From assembly GCA_045863335.1 (NCBI GenBank), contig BTVY01000062.1:1-30010 (forward strand): a stretch of DNA of 30,010 nt. The letters are read 5' to 3'. Positions 109 through 21,200 of this stretch are shown in pieces. The notes below the pieces were generated by a model. That model saw only the letters and a list, made by a program, of their open reading frames with translations, did no database searches and was not told the origin of the DNA. A program made the position numbers and the translations under genes. How positions within the stretch are numbered: the stretch's first letter is position 1; each line of letters starts with the position of its first letter. This DNA is from Candidatus Hydrogenedentota bacterium. GTDB lineage: Bacteria; Hydrogenedentota; Hydrogenedentia; Hydrogenedentales; SLHB01.

Positions 109-561
109 TTAATCCCAGATGTATCGTTCGTCGTATTCAATGTCGTGGGCAATCAGGAGGCGGAGGAACTCGGTTTTGAAGTCCTCCTTCCGATGGTGTT
201 CCTCCTGGGTTTCGATGTATGCCTTGACGCGGCTGATCTGTGACGCGCTCACGGTGAACGCACCGTATCCGCCTTGCCATGCGAAGTCCCGCAGTTCGGG
301 GAAGGTGTCGTGCACCCATTTGGAACTGCCGGCCTTCACTTCGCGCAACAGATCGGCGACGGCCACGGTCTGGTGAATCCGCGCGAGGATGTGAATATGG
401 TCCTCCGTGCCGCCGATCGACAACGCGACGCCGTTTTGGGTTCGGACGATGCCGCCGAGGTACGGGTAGAGGCGGTCGCGGATGTCGTTGGTCAACCACG
501 GGCGACGATCCTTGGTCGAGAAGACGAGATGGTAGAGCAGACACGTGAAGGATTGAGGCAT
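109..561 (-). CDS. tnpA: IS200/IS605-family Y1 HUH transposase (REP-associated tyrosine transposase-like), 150 aa
   Basis: MPQSFTCLLYHLVFSTKDRRP, HUH motif DHIH, FAWQGGYGAFTVS, catalytic Tyr helix AYIETQEEHH. Start placed at ATG 561; the track ORF extension to 927 runs through repeats. No tnpB adjacent. Confidence 0.9.
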   Translation of the reverse strand: MPQSFTCLLYHLVFSTKDRRPWLTNDIRDRLYPYLGGIVRTQNGVALSIGGTEDHIHILARIHQTVAVADLLREVKAGSSKWVHDTFPELRDFAWQGGYGAFTVSASQISRVKAYIETQEEHHRKEDFKTEFLRLLIAHDIEYDERYIWD

Positions 562-575
562 GGCGTTTCTCTCTC

Positions 576-676
576 TTCCGCCCCGTCCGGGGCTCGATGA
601 TTGGTGGGCGGCTGACCCAGGGTTCCGCTCGTGCCTCGCTCCACCCTGGGCTACAGTCCTCCGCCCCTCCGGGGCT
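576..676 (-). repeat. GTAG-REP repeat family A, copy 2 (inverted), upstream of transposase
   Basis: 616-654 is the exact reverse complement of the 39-bp core, with GCCCC-NNNN-GGGGC-type hairpins on both sides. Confidence 0.9.
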
Positions 677-882
677 AATACGGAGGAGTGTAAGCGGTCA
701 TATCTTGACAATGCAAATCCTTCCATTTCTCCGGGGTTACGTAGCATGAGGACATGCAGTGTTTGAGATGCAAGGTAGGAGTCGGTCCAGCGGTGTGAAA
801 TGAAAACACGCGGCAGCGGAGGGAGGGGCACCGCACCGGCGTTGCGACACCGGTTCAGTGCAAGAAATTTCGCGTGTTCATT

Positions 883-984
883 GCCCGGGAGGGGCAAAAG
901 ACTGTAGCCCAGGGTGGAGCGAGGCACGAGCGGAACCCTGGGTTGCGGGGGGGGGTCCCACGAAGCCCTGGAAGGGCGGCAGAA
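883..984 (+). repeat. GTAG-REP repeat family A, copy 3
   Basis: Core at 904-942 is identical to 16-54, followed by AGCCCTGGAAGGGCGG as in copy 1. Confidence 0.9.
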
Positions 985-4854: not shown

Positions 4855-5018
4855 AAGAACATCCCCCTTGATCCCCCTTCGAAGGGGGAATTTCGCAACA
4901 CTTCGTGTTGCGCACGTTGAGAGCTACGCCTCAGTCTTGACGCACCGGTTAAGGAAATTGCAATCTACTTCATTCGGCACAATTCCCCCTTTGAAGGGGG
5001 ACTAAGGGGGATGTTCTT
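4855..5018. repeat. REPIN/MITE-like element family B, copy 2
   Basis: Arms at 4855-4893 and 4981-5018 (inverted), in the divergent intergenic gap. Confidence 0.9.
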
Positions 5019-7180: not shown

Positions 7181-7337
7181 ACATCCCCCTTGATCCCCCT
7201 TCAAAGGGGGAATCTCGCAACGCTTCGCGTTGCGCGTGCTTAGCACTACGACTCAGTGTTTGCACAAGCCGAACAACTCTCCAGCGATCGGATTCGGCAC
7301 ATTCCCCCTTCGAAGGGGGATCAAGGGGGATGTTCTT
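7181..7337. repeat. REPIN/MITE-like element family B, copy 3
   Basis: Arms at 7181-7213 and 7301-7337, between the two permease genes. Confidence 0.9.
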
Positions 7338-14228: not shown

Positions 14229-15683
14229 CTACGCGATGATGTCGCGTACGATGTTGCCGTGGACGTCGGTGAGGCGGAAGTCGCGGCCCTGGTACGGAAA
14301 GGTGAGCCGTTCGTGATCGATCCCCATGAGATGGAGGATGGTCGCGTTGAGGTCGTGGATGTGGACGGGGTTCTCGACGATGTTGTAGCCGAACTCGTCC
14401 GTCTTGCCGTAGGTGAATCCGGATTTCAATCCCGCTCCGGCCATGAACACCGTGAAGCAGCGGCCGTGATGGTCGCGGCCGTAGTTCTCCGCGGTCAGCT
14501 TGCCCTGGCAGTACACGGTGCGCCCAAACTCGCCGCCCCAGATGACCAGCGTGTCGTCCAGCATGCCGCGCTGCTTCAGGTCCATGATCAAGGCCGCGGT
14601 CGCCTGGTCCGTGTCGGCGCACTGTTCGGTCAGGTCGTTGGGCAGGTTGTTGTGCTGGTCCCAATCGCGGTGGAAAAGCTGAATGAACCGCACGCCGCGC
14701 TCGGCCAGGCGCCGCGCGAGCAGACAGTTGGACGCGTAGGTCCCCGGTTGGCGCGCCTTGTCACCGTAGAGGTCGAAGATGTAATCGGGCTCGTCGGACG
14801 TGTCCGCGAGGTCCGGCACGGAAGTCTGCATGCGATAGGCCATTTCGTACTGGGCGATGCGCGTGTTGATCTCCGGGTCGCTGTAGTCCTCGAACTGCAT
14901 GGAGTTCAGTTTTGCCAGACTGTCCAGCATGCGCCGTCGCGTCATGTCGTCGACCCCCGGCGGGTTGGACAGGTACAACACGGGATCACCGCCGGACCGG
15001 AACTTCACACCCTGGTACTCCGACGGCAGGAATCCCGATCCCCAGAGCCGGTCGAACAAGGCCTGCGCCGGACGCTTCATATCCGTGCGCGACAGCATGA
15101 CGATGAAGGACGGCAAATCCTGGTTCTCGGTGCCAAGCCCGTAGGTTAGCCACGCGCCGACGCTGGGACGTCCGGGCTGTTGGCTGCCGGTCTGGATGTA
15201 GGTGATCGCCGGATCGTGATTGATGGCTTCCGTATTGACGGTCTTAACGAAACACAACTCGTCCGCGATGGACGCGATGTGGGGGAGACGATCGCTCACC
15301 CAGGCGCCGGACTGGCCGCGCTGATCGAATTTGAACATGGACGACACGAGGGGGAAGCTGTCTTGCCCGGAAGTCATTCCCGTGAGCCGCTGGCCCATGC
15401 GGACGGAATCCGGCAGCTCGCTTCCGTGGAGTCCCTGCAGGTCGGGTTTGTAATCGAAGAGATCGAGCTGCGAAGGTCCGCCGGATTGGAACAGGTAAAT
15501 GATGCGCTTAGCCTTCGGCGCGAAATGAGGCCCGGCGAGTCCGCCCGCCGTCGGGTCCGTGAGCGCCGCCAAGGCCCTGGGGTTCAATAACGAACCCAGC
15601 GCGGCAACGCCTATACCTGCACTGCAGCGCCCAAAGAAATGGCGGCGGGTCCACAGCAACTCATTCTCGCGAATCGGATCCAT
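14229..15683 (-). CDS. DUF1501 domain protein (sulfatase-like, Tat-type RRxFF N-terminus), paralog 2
   Basis: [61 protein letters not shown]. Confidence 0.92.
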
Positions 15684-15773
15684 CGGAACGACCTTTCACA
15701 TCCAAATCCGGGCAGATTTGCCTGCCTTTGCAGCCTTTCCAGAATATAGGAATCGTTCGGAAATGTAAAGTTA

Positions 15774-15892
15774 TTGCGGATTGCGGATTGCGGACTGCGG
15801 ACTGCGGACTGCGGATTGCGGATTGCGGATTGCGGATTGCGGACTGCGGACTGCGGACTGCGGACTGCGGACTGCGGACTGCGGACTGCGGA
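15774..15892 (+). repeat. Heptamer tandem array (YTGCGGA)x17, with degenerate units to about 15917
   Basis: Counted directly: T3 C3 T4 C7 at the first position; 119 bp. Confidence 0.97.
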
Positions 15893-15923
15893 CTGCTGGG
15901 ATTGGGGGATTAAGAATCGGCAC

Positions 15924-16277
15924 CTACTTGCGCGCGCGGGCCGTCTTAATGGAAGCGACGACCATGGAGAGAATCTCATTCGCTTCGGTTCGGAGTTCAG
16001 TAAGTCGCTCCTGCTTCATCAGTCCAGCGTCGATGAGGATTTCCATCCAATAGAGCGCCTCGTCACATTCCTCCTCAACGATTCCCATCTTGGAAATGAA
16101 ATCCGGTCGAGACTTGGCCCGGCACGCGGCCCGATAATTCGCCCCCACGGAAGTTCCACATCGGATCAATTGCCGCCCAATGACATCTGCAGTCCGTGAT
16201 TTCGGTAACGCTTCACACAGCCGAATTGTCCGCAGCGCGAAGGCCCTCGTCCGCTCCCGAAACTCGTTGGTTTCCAA
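15924..16277 (-). CDS. Four helix bundle protein (TIGR02436 / 23S rRNA IVS-protein-like), 117 aa
   Basis: RTRAFALRTIRL...QLIRCGTSVGANYRAACRAKSRPDFISKMGIVEEECDEALYWMEIL...EANEILSM; TTG start. Confidence 0.92.
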   Translation of the reverse strand: METNEFRERTRAFALRTIRLCEALPKSRTADVIGRQLIRCGTSVGANYRAACRAKSRPDFISKMGIVEEECDEALYWMEILIDAGLMKQERLTELRTEANEILSMVVASIKTARARK

Positions 16278-16336
16278 TCCTCAATCCCTATTTCACATAA
16301 CCCGGCAGAACCTGTGCCACCTCGGGCCCACATCGT

Positions 16337-16365
16337 ATAATAGTGCAGATCCCCCGCGCTCGCAA
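16337..16365 (-). promoter_or_regulatory. Putative sigma70 promoter of the four-helix-bundle gene
   Basis: On the minus strand TTGCGA-17 bp-TATTAT; the -35 box is the innermost degenerate heptamer unit. Confidence 0.45.
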
Positions 16366-16407
16366 TCCCCAATCTTTAATCCGCAATCCGCAATCCGCAG
16401 TCCGCAA
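16360..16407 (-). repeat. Inverted heptamer array: 4 perfect TCCGCAR units (16380-16407) plus 3 degenerate units
   Basis: TCGCAA TCCCCAA TCTTTAA TCCGCAA TCCGCAA TCCGCAG TCCGCAA; reverse complement of the 15774 array unit. Confidence 0.92.
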
Positions 16408-16417
16408 TTCCTCCCGC

Positions 16418-17860
16418 CTATCCCAGAATGGGATGAACCACATTTCCGTGGACGTCGGTGAGGCGGAAATCGCGGCCCTGGTAGCGGAACGTGAGGCGCT
16501 CGTGGTCGATGCCCATGAGGTGGAGGACGGTTGCGTTGAAGTCGTGGACGTGGACAGGGTCTTTCACGACATTGAAACTGAACTCGTCGGTTTCGCCGTA
16601 GGTGATCCCCGGTTTGATGCCGCCGCCGGCCATCCAGATGGAGAAGCAGCGGCCGTGATGATCGCGGCCGTAGTTGTCGGCTTCGAGCTTGCCCTGGCTG
16701 TAGACCGAACGGCCGAACTCGCCGCCCCAGATGACGAGCGTATCGTCCAGCATGCCCCGGGTCTTCAGGTCGGTAATGAGGGCGGCGCTAGCCTGATCCA
16801 CGTCTTTGCATTGGGATTGAATGTCGCGGGGAAGATTGTCGTGCTGGTCCCAACCCCGATGATAGAGCTGCACAAAGCGCACGCCGCGTTCCGCCAGCCG
16901 CCGCGCCAACAGGCAGTTGGCCGCGAAGGAGCCGGGCTTGCGGACGTCCTCGCCGTAGAGGTTCATGACCGATTCCGGCTCCGACGAAAAGTCCACTAGT
17001 TCCGGCACGGACATCTGCATCTTGTAGGCCATCTCGTACTGGGAAATGCGCGTCATGATTTCGGGATCGGCGACTTCCTCGTGGAGCGAGCGGTTTAGTT
17101 TGGAAAGGCCATCCAGCATCCGGCGGCGCGTTTCGCGATCCACGCCGGGAGGATTCTTGAGATACAGCACCGGTTCGCCGGACGATCGCAGGTTGATACC
17201 CTGATGCTCCGAGGGCAGGAAGCCCGCGCCCCAGATGCGGGGGTATAACGGCTGCATGTTCACGAAGGGGCTACCCTTCGAGATTAGTACGCAGAAGGCC
17301 GGCAGATCCTGATTCTCGCTGCCGAGCCCGTAGCTCAGCCAGGATCCCATGCTGGGCCGCCCCGCCTGCTGCGCGCCAGTCGTAACGTAGGTGGTCGCGG
17401 GATCGTGGTTGATGGCTTCCGTGTTCATGGTTCGCACGATGCACAGGTCGTCCGCGACGCCGGCGGTGTGCGGCAGCAATTCGCTCATCCATGCTCCGCT
17501 CTGGCCGTGCTGCTGGAATCGGAAGCGCGACGACACGACCGGGAAAGCGTCCTGGCCGGAAGTCATGGTGGTGAGCCGCTGCCCTCCCCGCACCGAATCC
17601 GGCAACTCCGTCCCGTGAAGGGATTGGAGGCTGGACTTGTAGTCGAAGAGGTCTACCTGCGACGGGCCGCCGGACATGAAGAGGTAGATGATGCGTTTGG
17701 CCTTCGGCGCAAAGTGCGGCGCCCGCGGCAACTGCGACGAACCGAAGGCCGCTGCGGGGTTCAGCAGTCCCGCCAGCGCCGCCACGCCAATCCCCGTGGT
17801 GGACCGGCCGAAGAACTGCCGCCGGGTCAACAGCAACTCGTTTTCGCGTACCGGGTCCAT
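16418..17860 (-). CDS. DUF1501 domain protein, paralog 1
   Basis: Same motifs as 14229..15683; ATG 17860 with AAGGA RBS. Confidence 0.92.
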
Positions 17861-17931
17861 GAGCAATCCTTGGCTTGCGCGTTTCGAGGGGTCTCAGCCT
17901 GTAACGATCGTCAAAACAACGCGAGTGCTAC

Positions 17932-18217
17932 TAAGAACATCCCCCTTGATCCCCCTTCAAAGGGGGAGTAGCGTGGGGCATGCTAACGGTTTTAAATGCG
18001 GTATTCTGCTTCGGGCCGAGTATTTCGCTACGCTCATTCGCGCCGTAAAGTGGCCGCGCTTCGTTCCCCCCTTTGACGGAGGCGTTTTATGGAGCTACGG
18101 CTACGGTCGCGAACGCGGTATTCTGCTTCGGACCGAGTATTTCGCTACGCTCATTCGCGCCGTAAAGCGGCCGCGTTTCATTCCCCCTTTGAAGGGGGAT
18201 CAAGGGGGATGTTCTTA
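17932..18217. repeat. REPIN/MITE-like element family B, copy 4, with internal direct duplication
   Basis: Arms at 17932-17967 and 18180-18217; 17998-18076 is duplicated at 18115-18192. Confidence 0.9.
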
Positions 18218-18267
18218 AGAGCATGTGCCGTGCCCGACATCCCCGATGGGTTACGGATTCGTCATGT

Positions 18268-21200
18268 TCAACTTTTCGTGACGGTTTCGTCCAGGTTCAG
18301 AATGATGCTGGCGATGGTGCTCCACGCGGCCAGTTCCGGCACATCCAGCGATTCGTCGCGCGGATGCTCGCCCACAGCGAGCAAAGCCGAGGCCGCTTCC
18401 TGATCCTGCCGGTAGGCTTCGACTTGCGCGTTGAACGTTTCCACGAGAACCAAACACTCTTCCGGTTTCGGCTCGCGCGCCGTGGCCAGTTCGAAGGCAT
18501 ACATGACGCGATCCATCGGCTCGGGCCCCGCTTCCTTCATCATGCGTTCGGCCAGCACACGCGCCGCTTCGACGTACTGCGTGTCGTTCATCAGTGCGAG
18601 CGCCTGCAACGGCGTGTTCGTGCGCGCGCGGCGTACGGTGCACACCTCGCGGTTTGGCGCGTCGAAGATCAGCATACCCGGAGGCGGCGACTGCCGTTTC
18701 CAGAAGGTGTACATGCTGCGGCGGTAGAGCGCCTCGCCGGTGTCCTGCTCGAATATCTGACCGGTGAATTCCGTGCCGCCGTAGGACACCTCTTTCCAGA
18801 GGCCTTCCGGCTGGTACGGCTTCACGCTCGGGCCGCCAATGTCTTCCACTAACAGGCCGCTGATGGCGAGCGCATTGTCGCGCACCATTTCCGCGTCCAT
18901 GCGGAAACGGGGACCTTTCGCCAGCAATCGATTCTCCGGATCGCGCTCGAGCAACTCGTCGCGGTACTTCGATGCCTGGCGATACGTTGCCGACAGGACG
19001 ATCTTCTTCTGCATGGCCTTGATGTCCCAGCCCGACGCGACAAACTCGGTCGCCAGCCAGTCGAGCAGCTCGGGATGGGTCGGCCATTCGCCCTGAATGC
19101 CGAAGTCTTCCGCGGTGCGGACGAGGCCCAATCCGAAGTAGTGCATCCAGTAGCGATTGACCACCACGCGCGACGTCAACGGATGCGAGGGGTCCACGAG
19201 CCACTGGGCGAAACCGAGCCGGTTGTTGGGCGCGCCTTCCGGAAGGGGTGGCAGCGCAGCCGGCACGGCCGCGGTTACCTTATCCGTGGGCTGATCGTAC
19301 TGGCCACGCGCGAGGATGAAGGTTTCGCGCGGCTCTTCCATTTCCGCCATGACCATCGTCGTGGGGATTTCCGCTTCCAGCTTCTTCCGCTCTGCTTCGA
19401 GGGCGGCGAGATCCGTGCTCAGCGGTTCCCAGTCCGGCCAGTTCCGGCTCCGGTAATACTCGCGGAGACTTGCGACCTGCGTCTCGTTCCGGGTGTCCGC
19501 CGGGATAGACAAGGCCCGCTCCACTTCCATCGGCACATCGCCCACGACCTCGTCCGCACGCCGGAAGTAGTAGGCGTAGGCGTTGCCGTAGTTCACAACC
19601 TTCATGAGGAGCTGGTTTTCGCCTGATTTCAGCTTGACCGTGACCATGTCCTGGTCCGCAGCAACACCGCGCTGCACGTCGTTGTCGTGGACGACTTCGC
19701 CGTTCAGCCAGAGCTTGTTGGCATCGTTGCTGCCCAAGGCGAGCGTGATCTCGCGTTCCGAAGGCGAGGTAATCGTCCGGTAGAAATAGGTCGCGCAGAT
19801 TTCGCCGGTGAGTTCCTGGATTGCGCCGTCCGTCAGGTGAGGTTGAAGCACCCACTTGGCGCGATGATCTTCATAGGTTGCCGCGAGATCGACGCCCTCT
19901 TCGGGGCCGTACGCGGTTGTGTAAGCCTGCTTGCCGTCCTCGGCGATGTAGGGACCGTTCACGTACCAGGGTCCGAATTCGGCGGGGGCCATGGCGGGAT
20001 CCGCCGTGGCCGAAACCTTGAAACTGCCCATGGCATGGTTCGCGAACTTCGACTCGTGGCGAATCACGATACGAATGCGCGTGCCCACATCAAAACCGAA
20101 GGGCCGCTCCGCCACAAACACAATGGCGCGGTCCTCGCTGCTGCCGCCGTCTACCGCCCAACCTGTCTCCGCGTTGCCATCAATCGTGAGGGCGGCATTG
20201 AAGTCCTTCTGCGCATAGTCTGCCACCGCCGTGACGAACTTCACGGGCTGCTTCAGTTCCGCGTTGTCGGCCGGAGAGATTTCCGCCTCGAAGGAGGTAA
20301 GCACAAAATTGCCGTTGTTCGAGCGGCCGAGCTTGCCGTCGATCATGGATGCGTCCGTTAGGGCGTCCAAGCGGATCGCCGTCATGCCGGTCAGGTTCGT
20401 ATGCGCGACGATCTCATATACGTCCGTCGCCGGGTTTTCGCCTTCCACGAGGATGGAACGGTCGACGCGCTTCTTCAGCGTCGCCCCGCCCGAAGACGTG
20501 GCGGTTTCCGCTTCCAGCGCGGTCCAACGCGACTCCAGCTTTGACAGAGTTTCCGTTTCCCACGCGGCCTGGGCCGCGTCGACCTCGGCAATCGGCGCGC
20601 TCATCTTCGCGAGCACGGCGTCGATGTCCGTCTTCAGTACCGCCATCTTCTCCCGCTGTTCGGGGAGCGGCGCGGGGATGCGCGGCACGGCGTTGCCATC
20701 GTTTCCGTCCGAACCCTTCTCGGGCACCGAATTGAAGAAGGCGAACATCTGGTAAAACTCTTCCATGGACACGGGATCGAACTTGTGATCGTGACATTGG
20801 GCACAGCCGACCGTCAGCCCGAGCCAGGTGGAACCGGTCGTGTTCAGTCGATCGATGACGTACTGGACGCGATACTCTTCCGGAATGATCCCGCCTTCGA
20901 ACGTGATCATGTGGTTGCGATTGAAGCCCGTAGCGATGAGCTGGTCAAGGCTGGGATCGGGCAAGAGGTCGCCCGCGAGCTGTTCGATGGTGAACTGGTC
21001 GAAGGGCAGATTCTTGTTGTACGCGTCGATGACCCAGTCGCGCCAGCGCCACATGTACCGCACATTGTCGATGTGATAGCCGTTCGTGTCGGCGTAGCGC
21101 GCCACGTCGAGCCAGCGCCGCGCCATCTGCTCGCCGTAATGCGGCGATTCGAGCAGGCGGTCGACCAGCTTCTCGTACGCGTCCGGACTTTCATCAGCGA

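Follow-up and report, generated by a model that had tools for sequence, protein, structure and literature searches.

What is a gene for a small four-helix-bundle protein doing between two inverted arrays of heptanucleotide repeats, and how did this arrangement come to lie between two DUF1501 genes? The question is raised by a 30,010-nt stretch of DNA from a Candidatus Hydrogenedentota bacterium (assembly GCA_045863335.1, contig BTVY01000062.1, positions 1 to 30,010; hereafter the window), in which a TIGR02436/PF05635 (Avd-like) gene and its flanking arrays form a 634-bp cassette, designated C62. We think it fairly probable that C62 is one copy of a widespread and apparently undescribed class of insertion cassettes, a relative of the intervening sequences (IVSs) of rRNA genes found outside ribosomal genes, with the Avd-like protein as putative reader of the arrays. 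A member of this class consists of a PF05635/TIGR02436 gene between two inverted arrays of a short repeat, usually of 7 nt. A full-text search over part of the journals returned no link of PF05635/TIGR02436 to flanking repeat arrays.

Organisation of the cassette

The features of the locus, in the order in which a transcript of the enclosed gene would meet them and with arm units written in gene sense, are as follows.

16418–17866, minus strand: upstream DUF1501 gene (PF07394, E value 3.8e-163), stop codon at 16418–16420
16380–16407, minus strand: 5′ arm, four perfect units (TTGCGGA, CTGCGGA, TTGCGGA, TTGCGGA)
16359–16379, minus strand: 5′ arm, three degenerate inner units (TTAAAGA, TTGGGGA, TTGCGAG)
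16337–16365, minus strand: promoter-like site in the cassette, TTGCGA-17-TATTAT (consensus match only, 9 of 12 positions)
15924–16277, minus strand: TIGR02436/PF05635 four-helix-bundle gene, 117 aa, TTG start (profile matches)
15893–15913, minus strand: 3′ arm, three degenerate inner units (TTAATCC, CCCAATC, CCAGCAG)
15774–15892, minus strand: 3′ arm, 17 perfect units, TCCGCAR (from the sequence and Tandem Repeats Finder, TRF)
15741–15769, minus strand: TTTACA-17-TATTCT, the promoter-like site of the downstream DUF1501 gene, immediately outside the cassette
14229–15683, minus strand: downstream DUF1501 gene (PF07394, E value 1.6e-161)

Read on the plus strand, positions 15774–15892 hold 17 perfect YTGCGGA units without interruption (TRF: 17.4 copies, 97 % matches, score 202), while positions 16380–16407 hold four perfect TCCGCAR units, for which the TRF array call extends over 16361–16408. 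The initial annotation, made from the letters alone, had described 17 perfect units on one side of the gene, four perfect plus three degenerate complementary units on the other, and a decay of both arrays towards the gene; this layout was recovered in full, with three degenerate units at the inner end of each array. The arms are very unequal (7 versus 20 units). The four-unit 5′ arm represents the standard module, exactly four units being present at 19 of the 37 TTGCGGA-type sites of the genome.

Both DUF1501 neighbours are full-length by Pfam and lie on the same strand as the enclosed open reading frame (ORF), and the short array stops 10 bp from the stop codon of the upstream gene; both points had been claimed before and were verified. 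A PSCyt/DUF1549/DUF1553 gene lies farther upstream. The additional claim that the cassette sits inside an operon is doubtful, since the downstream DUF1501 gene possesses a promoter-like sequence of its own (TTTACA-17-TATTCT), in a stretch that is retained in relatives; 5 bp separate the 17-unit array from the first hexamer of this site. The first hexamer of the promoter-like site within the cassette is derived from the last degenerate unit of the 5′ arm, and both of its hexamers are kept in a sister species (G003, below). No rRNA was detected in the window by Rfam, and the cassette sits between DUF1501 genes, not within a 23S rRNA gene.

Insertion between the DUF1501 genes

The slot was compared across species by searching a 3.6-kb query from this genome (G000) in 30 related genomes, with five species of the same genus denoted G001–G005. 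The cassette is present at the same site in G003 (92 % identical), with an upstream array of three TTGCGGA units and a downstream array of TCCCCAA units that runs into the contig end. A DUF488 gene without arrays lies between the DUF1501 genes in G005 (flanks 92–93 % identical; Pfam E value 1.4e-18), and the same gene, again without arrays, fills the slot in G002 and G001 (76–80 % identical). DUF488 has thus given way to the cassette in the G000/G003 lineage. At this locus the upstream neighbour in G004 is another gene.

Against the DUF488-bearing relatives, the right junction falls exactly where the 17-unit array has its outer end. On the left, the junction is within the final two codons of the upstream DUF1501 gene, where the outermost degenerate unit provides a new stop codon: with the junction marked by a slash, the gene ends in CTGG/GATAG in G000 and G003 and in CTGG/TATAA in G005, G002 and G001. 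G005 and G004 have kept the promoter-like stretch past the right junction, and a comparable TTTACA motif occurs in G001 and G002.

Two further cassettes of this genome, C24 and C6 (listed below), could be compared in the same way. At the C24 position, G001 and G002 have empty sites of 36–38 bp between the same convergent genes, G005 has much longer arrays of mixed units at which the assembly is broken, and G004 has a different array hairpin without cargo. G003 carries C6 with arrays that have changed, and G005 has an unrelated sequence of ~1 kb in its place. No target duplication was visible at the C62 or C24 junctions, in comparisons with genomes that are 75–93 % identical and with one of the two sites being a replacement.

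These comparisons showed the gene and its arrays to behave as a discrete unit, inserted or exchanged whole and acquired in the G000/G003 lineage, with the outer ends of the arrays as its ends. They also showed a fast turnover of the arrays in unit number and dominant unit, with the arms still complementary in most relatives. The earlier suggestion of a mobile or selfish unit is borne out to the extent that a discrete unit arrived here, same-genus species having DUF488 and no arrays in the slot. With the cassette in two species and DUF488 in three, the slot constitutes an unusually clean natural experiment.

Family loci and arrays in the same genome

TIGR02436 matches occur in nine places, representing eight loci, in this 6.75-Mb genome, and inverted short-repeat arrays bracket seven of the eight, each with its own unit. 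Six of the bracketed loci were returned by an automated census and the seventh, C66, was identified by eye.

C24 family locus: unit GGGGTAT and its complement
C6 family locus: GAATTAA-type unit
C66 family locus, with a frameshifted gene: AGTCTKK-type unit
C79 family locus, 17847–18395: hexamer ATCGGT
C29 and C30 family loci: nonamers TATGGAC.. or ATAGGACCT
C62 family locus: the cassette studied here, YTGCGGA

At the eighth locus, C25, an inverted array hairpin lies inside the ORF and does not bracket it.

The census, which covered TRF arrays of period 5–9 with at least 2.9 copies (695 arrays), yielded 73 inverted same-period pairs within 1.5 kb versus 13 direct-only pairs; most inverted pairs have loops of 20–220 bp and no gene. 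Runs of at least three YTGCGGA-type units number 37, versus 0 for the unit read backwards, a contrast not expected by chance. We considered whether the cargo-less TTGCGGA modules are decayed copies of the cassette and rejected this, as no remnant of the interior was found by BLASTn or tBLASTn.

Several other array types were observed in passing. Hexamer arrays of ATCGGT/ACCGAT form 31 inverted pairs with loops of ~20–40 bp (e.g. C33:65963-66192 and C25:101948-102119), and the ATCGGT pair at C79:17847-18395 encloses a TIGR02436 gene; several ATCGGT arrays reach contig ends, indicating that the assembly breaks in hexamer arrays. Composite elements, in which a four-unit TTGCGGA module lies between CTGGAGR/CCTCCAG-type arrays, were seen at C3:204729-204967, C37:70607-70712 and C1:295472-295540.

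Conservation of the association in other genomes

Relatives of the 117-aa protein at an E value of 1e-10 or below are present in 50 of the 133 genomes of the order. From these genomes we took a sample of 30 loci, 29 with usable flanks, and compared 220 nt on each side with 45 displaced-flank controls. Complementary arms scored above the control maximum at 24 of the 29 loci (scores of at least 18.5, against a maximum of 11.0 in the controls). The loci that did not exceed the controls were L014 (the G003 copy, whose arms are unlike and whose contig is cut), L030, L033, L035 and L037. A wider scan, with one genome per species, gathered 80 loci at 40–70 % protein identity, of which 74 were evaluable (one of them a record already included in the order sample) and were set against 68 controls; arms exceeded the control maximum (13.5) at 63 of the 74, in about a dozen phyla by hand-assigned labels. 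Inverted short arrays, which the initial annotation had asked about for the family genes of this genome and its relatives, thus flank TIGR02436 genes at 7 of 8 loci here, 24 of 29 in the order and 63 of 74 in the wider scan.

The unit varies by locus (TTGCGGA, GATTGAC, AATGCGG, GATTTTG, GAATTGA, ATCGGGTG) and the two arms usually match, a pattern of differing units with complementary arms that amounts to covariation at the scale of the whole array. Homologous cassettes stand in unrelated gene contexts, one example being a site next to genes that look, by eye, like those for ATPase subunits. One such slot, L027, L028 and L035 (G114, G012 and G109), appears to be shared by three genomes of two genera with ATPase-subunit-like neighbours; its arrays are intact in two copies and almost decayed in L035, suggesting that some insertions are old and vertically inherited. 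The closest relatives outside the order (L064–L142), at 55–65 % identity, come from Acidobacteriota, Verrucomicrobiota, Chloroflexota, Planctomycetota and other phyla, and this spread suggests frequent horizontal transfer of the cassette.

At the level of whole genomes, TIGR02436 is present in 109 of the 133 genomes of the order, and 43 contain four GATT cores in 7-nt phase, the control read backwards being mostly zero. Of the 109 family-bearing genomes, 41 have GATT-phased arrays, versus 2 of the 24 without the family, and against close relatives of the 117-aa protein they give a two-by-two table of 32/11/18/72.

Properties of the arms

A TRF array was found in 178 of the 199 flanks, with a period of 7 for the longest array in 132 flanks, of 14 or 21 in 29 and of 8 in 9. 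The 132 period-7 flank arrays have a median length of 32 nt, 68 of them comprising four whole units, and 92 of the 316 period-7 arrays of this genome are 31–33 nt long. Such a sharp length mode is not expected of free slippage, with the caveat that short imperfect arrays are disfavoured by the score threshold of TRF. The commonest 4-mer repeated three times at 7-nt spacing was GATT (43 of 104 loci), followed by ATTT (27); a GA(T/A/G)T core was present at 56 of the 104.

The arms also have a polarity. G exceeds C in the 5′ arm of 57 of 63 cassettes (less in 2, equal in 4), and the 5′ arm is the richer in G in 54 of 71 inverted pairs of this genome. As an inverted repeat is identical from either strand, this polarity is independent of gene direction and is a property of the hairpin. 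The opposite polarity, with the C-rich, A-rich arm first, was seen in a dispersed element whose conserved arms, ~50 bp long, consist of AAATCCG/AAATTCG-like units and whose loops, of 115–220 bp, are unrelated (C23:50061-50336, C3:161437-161715, C54:25810-25986); the copies seen contain no gene.

The enclosed protein

Membership of the family is clear from the profile scores (TIGR02436, 93.8 bits against a cut-off of 24; PF05635, 69.7 bits against 33.8). An AlphaFold2 model built from a 12-sequence alignment (predicted local distance difference test score 95.6) has four helices, at residues 3–22, 28–52, 57–83 and 89–115. Foldseek matched it to BT_0352 (2rld; template modelling (TM) score 0.85–0.88, 34 % identity; phmmer against 2rld_A, E value 2.5e-19), to Xcc0516 of Xanthomonas campestris (2gsc; TM 0.79–0.85) and to Avd, both of the Bordetella phage retroelement (4dwl; TM 0.75) and within the ribonucleoprotein of a diversity-generating retroelement (DGR) (8ub7; TM 0.78). 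Five chains are listed in each of 2rld and 2gsc, and Avd is a pentamer. The 117-aa protein is basic (isoelectric point 9.07). Relative to its G003 ortholog it shows four non-synonymous and eight synonymous changes (pN/pS 0.17, from small numbers); the TIGR02436 gene of the cassette appears to be under purifying selection, and these small counts fit a working gene.

The relationship to Avd that had been proposed for this protein was supported by the fold matches (TM 0.75–0.80), and so was the lack of a linked reverse transcriptase: PF00078 has 0 matches in the whole genome (99.39 % complete), no reverse transcriptase was matched among the 22 + 4 window ORFs scanned, and no template or variable repeats of a DGR were seen. 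Because the genome has no PF00078 reverse transcriptase, the protein does not serve as a DGR accessory protein.

Three loci belong to the TIGR04258 'four helix bundle suffix domain' subfamily (C30:83872-84457, which is L047; C25:54200-54950; C29:54175-55057). At C30 the reading frame runs through the downstream nonamer array, which thereby forms a linker from the bundle to the suffix domain, and at C25 a complete inverted array hairpin lies within the ORF at the position of this linker.

Predicted RNA structure and transcription

We folded a 661-nt sense RNA of the locus. Pairing joins the short array to the outermost units of the long one, with the ORF enclosed, in both the minimum free energy (MFE) and the centroid structures, and the MFE of −292.4 kcal/mol (z = −7.3) was not reached by any of 20 shuffled sequences. 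The computed fold agrees with the idea, put forward in the initial annotation, that the arrays pair in many registers and loop out the ORF. With such a long arm stem and an RNase III gene present in the genome, RNA excision as in 23S rRNA IVSs is physically plausible. One RNA sequencing run shares 56 % of the words sampled. Cutting of read-through RNA would be a likely physical outcome of such arms, though not necessarily their selected function. A transcript from the promoter-like site in the cassette, which lies 3′ of the 5′ arm, would be without that arm.

Other functions of the arms found no support. The C-poor 5′ arm was considered as a source of stop codons in all frames and rejected, stops occurring in a mean of 1.31 frames versus 1.67 in composition-matched shuffles and 26 of 87 arms (one locus counted twice) having no stop in any frame. 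Arrays as rows of −35 boxes were likewise rejected: inward promoter-like sites on the sense strand were found at 11 of 97 loci versus 6.9 expected, and the other three directions gave 11, 11 and 7 loci versus 6.6–7.4 expected. A −10-like hexamer 6 nt before the ATG was present at only 6 of 47 loci. The promoter-like site in the cassette is a local feature common to G003, not a general rule. Whole-flank duplex energies, sense versus antisense, were uninformative in that displaced-flank controls were as good as real flanks, and the orientation of genes beside the cassettes was ambiguous for 113 of 199 scorable flanks, a second heuristic mis-calling a known control locus.

A model of the cassette

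In the model that we propose, the arrays would be the cis-acting ends of an element. The basic protein, probably pentameric like its fold relatives, would recognise heptamer arrays, and the ~4.5 units of a module would present five cores at 7-nt spacing, matched to the pentamer. The protein's targets would be the arms of its own cassette and the ~35 modules without cargo at other places in the genome. Pairing of the arms, in DNA or in RNA, may be what delimits the unit. Read-through from the upstream gene would carry both arms and form a stem of ~45 bp, a potential RNase III substrate as in rRNA IVSs, and cleavage there would separate the cassette from host messages. No recombinase was found linked to the cassette.

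A bolder version, which we advance only tentatively and hold to be rather unlikely, extends this to the whole family: Avd-like proteins would be sequence-specific readers of heptamer-spaced cores, one pentamer subunit per unit and five cores per 32-nt module, and would propagate together with the arrays, the reader gene lying between its own sites and seeding cargo-less modules.

Weighing the explanations

Several observations weigh against the insertion-cassette reading. The arrays are far more numerous than the family genes: most of the 316 period-7 TRF arrays of the genome are gene-free, only two of the 37 TTGCGGA-type modules belong to this cassette, and neither BLASTn nor tBLASTn found another copy or remnant of the cassette interior in the genome. 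The arms of the G003 copy have different dominant units, on a cut contig, and their score of 9.0 lies within the control range; pairing is thus not always kept (TTGCGGA versus TCCCCAA). The replacement of DUF488 could be a homologous exchange of the whole region, not a transposition. Co-occurrence of arrays and family across genomes is a lead, inflated by relatedness, genome size and the cassettes' own arrays. Binding of the arrays by the protein is inferred only from the fold analogy and from unit counting. Two tests gave no signal of a strand-specific (RNA-level) constraint: arm mismatches comprised 27 G-U pairs in the sense RNA versus 25 in the antisense (69 others), and cargo-less TTGCGGA modules showed no preferred orientation relative to the upstream gene (16 same, 15 opposite). 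A DNA-level role of the arms, as element ends or binding sites, fits these negative strand tests at least as well.

The numbers of gene-free arrays also speak for a passive association, in which the array hairpins would be autonomous, like repetitive extragenic palindromic (REP) sequences or simple sequence repeats (SSRs), and would mark permissive or recombination-prone slots between genes, with the gene as surviving cargo and its protein unrelated to the arrays. We regard this as unlikely, albeit the best of the alternatives. The 71 inverted pairs with their mostly gene-free loops of 20–220 bp, the different cargo-less array hairpin at the C24 site in G004 and the existence of intergenic slots with alternative contents among same-genus species all speak for it; yet among the loops of at least 370 bp, the identified gene is a TIGR02436 member in six of nine (C24, C6, C62, C79, C29 and C30), the other large loops (C22, C36 and C48) having no convincing gene by eye and ORFs outside the family search. 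Moreover, the association read from gene to array holds over about a dozen phyla while the units change, and arrays are nearly absent from genomes of the order without the family (2 of 24). The possibility raised in the initial annotation, that heptamer arrays would prove to be scattered genome-wide and unassociated with the gene family, was therefore half realised: the arrays are indeed scattered without the gene, whereas the association from gene to array is nearly complete.

It is less probable still that the cassette and the cargo-less hairpins are REPIN-like non-autonomous elements moved in trans by IS200-like Y1 (HUH) transposases. Transposases of this family act on single-stranded DNA hairpins and typically leave no target duplication, so that the hairpin form of the elements and the lack of visible duplications at the junctions would suit them, and the genome has 11 Y1_Tnp matches, one of them at 109–927 of the window. 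However, a period-7 array lies within 1.2 kb of only 1 of the 11 Y1 genes, and on this count a link to REP-associated tyrosine transposases (RAYTs) was rejected; a palindromic repeat of another kind, matching Rfam Acido-Lenti-1, flanks the copy in the window, and the cassettes are spread over many phyla. The description of the cassette as transposase-free needs qualifying: the window does hold a Y1 gene, but one that lies 15 kb away and has no association with heptamer arrays. This gene (109–927, minus strand; PF01797, E value 4.3e-26) is accompanied by palindromic repeats of ~40 nt near 10–60, 615–660 and 905–950, with the Acido-Lenti-1 match at 616–676, and a truncated second copy of its 3′ end lies at ~1000–1250.

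An RNA-processing switch, in which the cassette protein would set the ratio of the two DUF1501 products, had been suggested by the position between co-oriented paralogs and by arms that pair in many registers. We consider it very improbable, as it is contradicted by the ancestry of the slot, whose former occupant was an unrelated DUF488 gene, by the retained promoter-like site of the downstream DUF1501 gene and by the homologous cassettes in unrelated contexts elsewhere. Scarcely credible, too, is a contingency locus at which slippage of the 17-unit array varies downstream DUF1501 expression, for although the array lies 5 bp from the promoter-like first hexamer and differs in length and unit between sister species, changes in its length leave the hexamer spacing unaltered and the same arrays flank the gene family wherever it is located.

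Relationship to known elements

The closest counterpart of the insertion cassette is the ORF-bearing 23S rRNA IVS. According to PMC4990558, the IVS of Coxiella burnetii is 428–444 nt long, has a 28-bp stem and a homologous ORF, and is cut by RNase III within the stem; ORF-bearing 23S IVSs occur also in Leptospira, as cited there. In both IVS and cassette, terminal inverted repeats form a long stem whose loop contains an ORF of the PF05635 family; they are also of similar size (428–444 nt versus 634 bp here, with stems of 28 versus ~45 bp) and share a description as selfish, horizontally moved elements. The cassette differs in lying between protein-coding genes, in having unequal arms of tandem heptamers and in possessing its own promoter-like site. 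For the IVS, cutting by RNase III is demonstrated; for the cassette it is a prediction.

Among known heptameric repeats are the short tandemly repeated repetitive (STRR) sequences of cyanobacteria. Intergenic tandem heptamers are described in PMC4692102 for Xanthomonas (GGGAATC, with 70–75 convergent inverted pairs) and Nostoc (GGGGAYT), where they are treated as G-quadruplex-forming SSRs whose length varies between relatives. They resemble the present arrays in being tandem 7-nt repeats, intergenic, arranged in convergent inverted pairs and variable in length, and they have a GAAT or GAYT core as here. That paper differs from our findings in drawing no link to a gene family, the terms S23, four helix and intervening being absent from its text. 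The genus Xanthomonas is also the source of 2gsc (X. campestris), a fold relative of the cassette protein.

According to the review PMC10053308, DGR reverse transcriptases have PF05635 as their most frequent Pfam neighbour. The cassette protein shares the four-helix-bundle fold of DGR Avd (4dwl and 8ub7; TM 0.75–0.80), but this genome has no reverse transcriptase.

Dispersed hairpins are also formed by REPINs, with their RAYTs, and by MITEs (miniature transposable elements with inverted repeats), in which cargo-less hairpins accompany few gene-bearing copies and no target duplication is seen. The elements described here are alike in their cargo-less hairpins beside few gene-bearing copies and in the lack of a visible target duplication at the C62 and C24 junctions. 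They are unlike REPINs in having tandem-array arms whose unit differs per copy and a linked gene that is not a transposase, and the Y1 genes of this genome are not array-flanked. Integron cassettes carry attC on one side only and need an integrase and an attI platform. They share with the present cassettes the form of a small single-gene unit with an imperfect inverted-repeat element and the occurrence of alternative contents in one slot; unlike in integrons, neither integrase nor attI was noticed here, though no aimed search was made.

Other hairpins in the window

A second hairpin family is present in the window at 2671–2823, 7183–7331 and 17939–18210, with a half copy at 4861–4879. Its arms are built as a direct 10-mer repeat, ATCCCCCTTG, and then a small internal hairpin, CCCCCTTCAAAGGGGG, and unlike the variable loops they are conserved. 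The space separating the DUF1553-family gene from the upstream DUF1501 gene holds one of the copies.

Implications

PF05635/TIGR02436 is a very large family for which, to our knowledge, no function is known outside DGRs, and we know of no explanation for the over-representation of 7-nt tandem repeats between bacterial genes or for the origin of ORF-bearing 23S IVSs. The C62 locus ties these three matters, the function of PF05635, the 7-nt repeat excess and the origin of rRNA IVSs, into one physical, testable unit. Were the proposed system of reader and arrays to prove real, it would explain both the excess of 7-nt intergenic repeats and the origin of the ORF-bearing rRNA IVSs.

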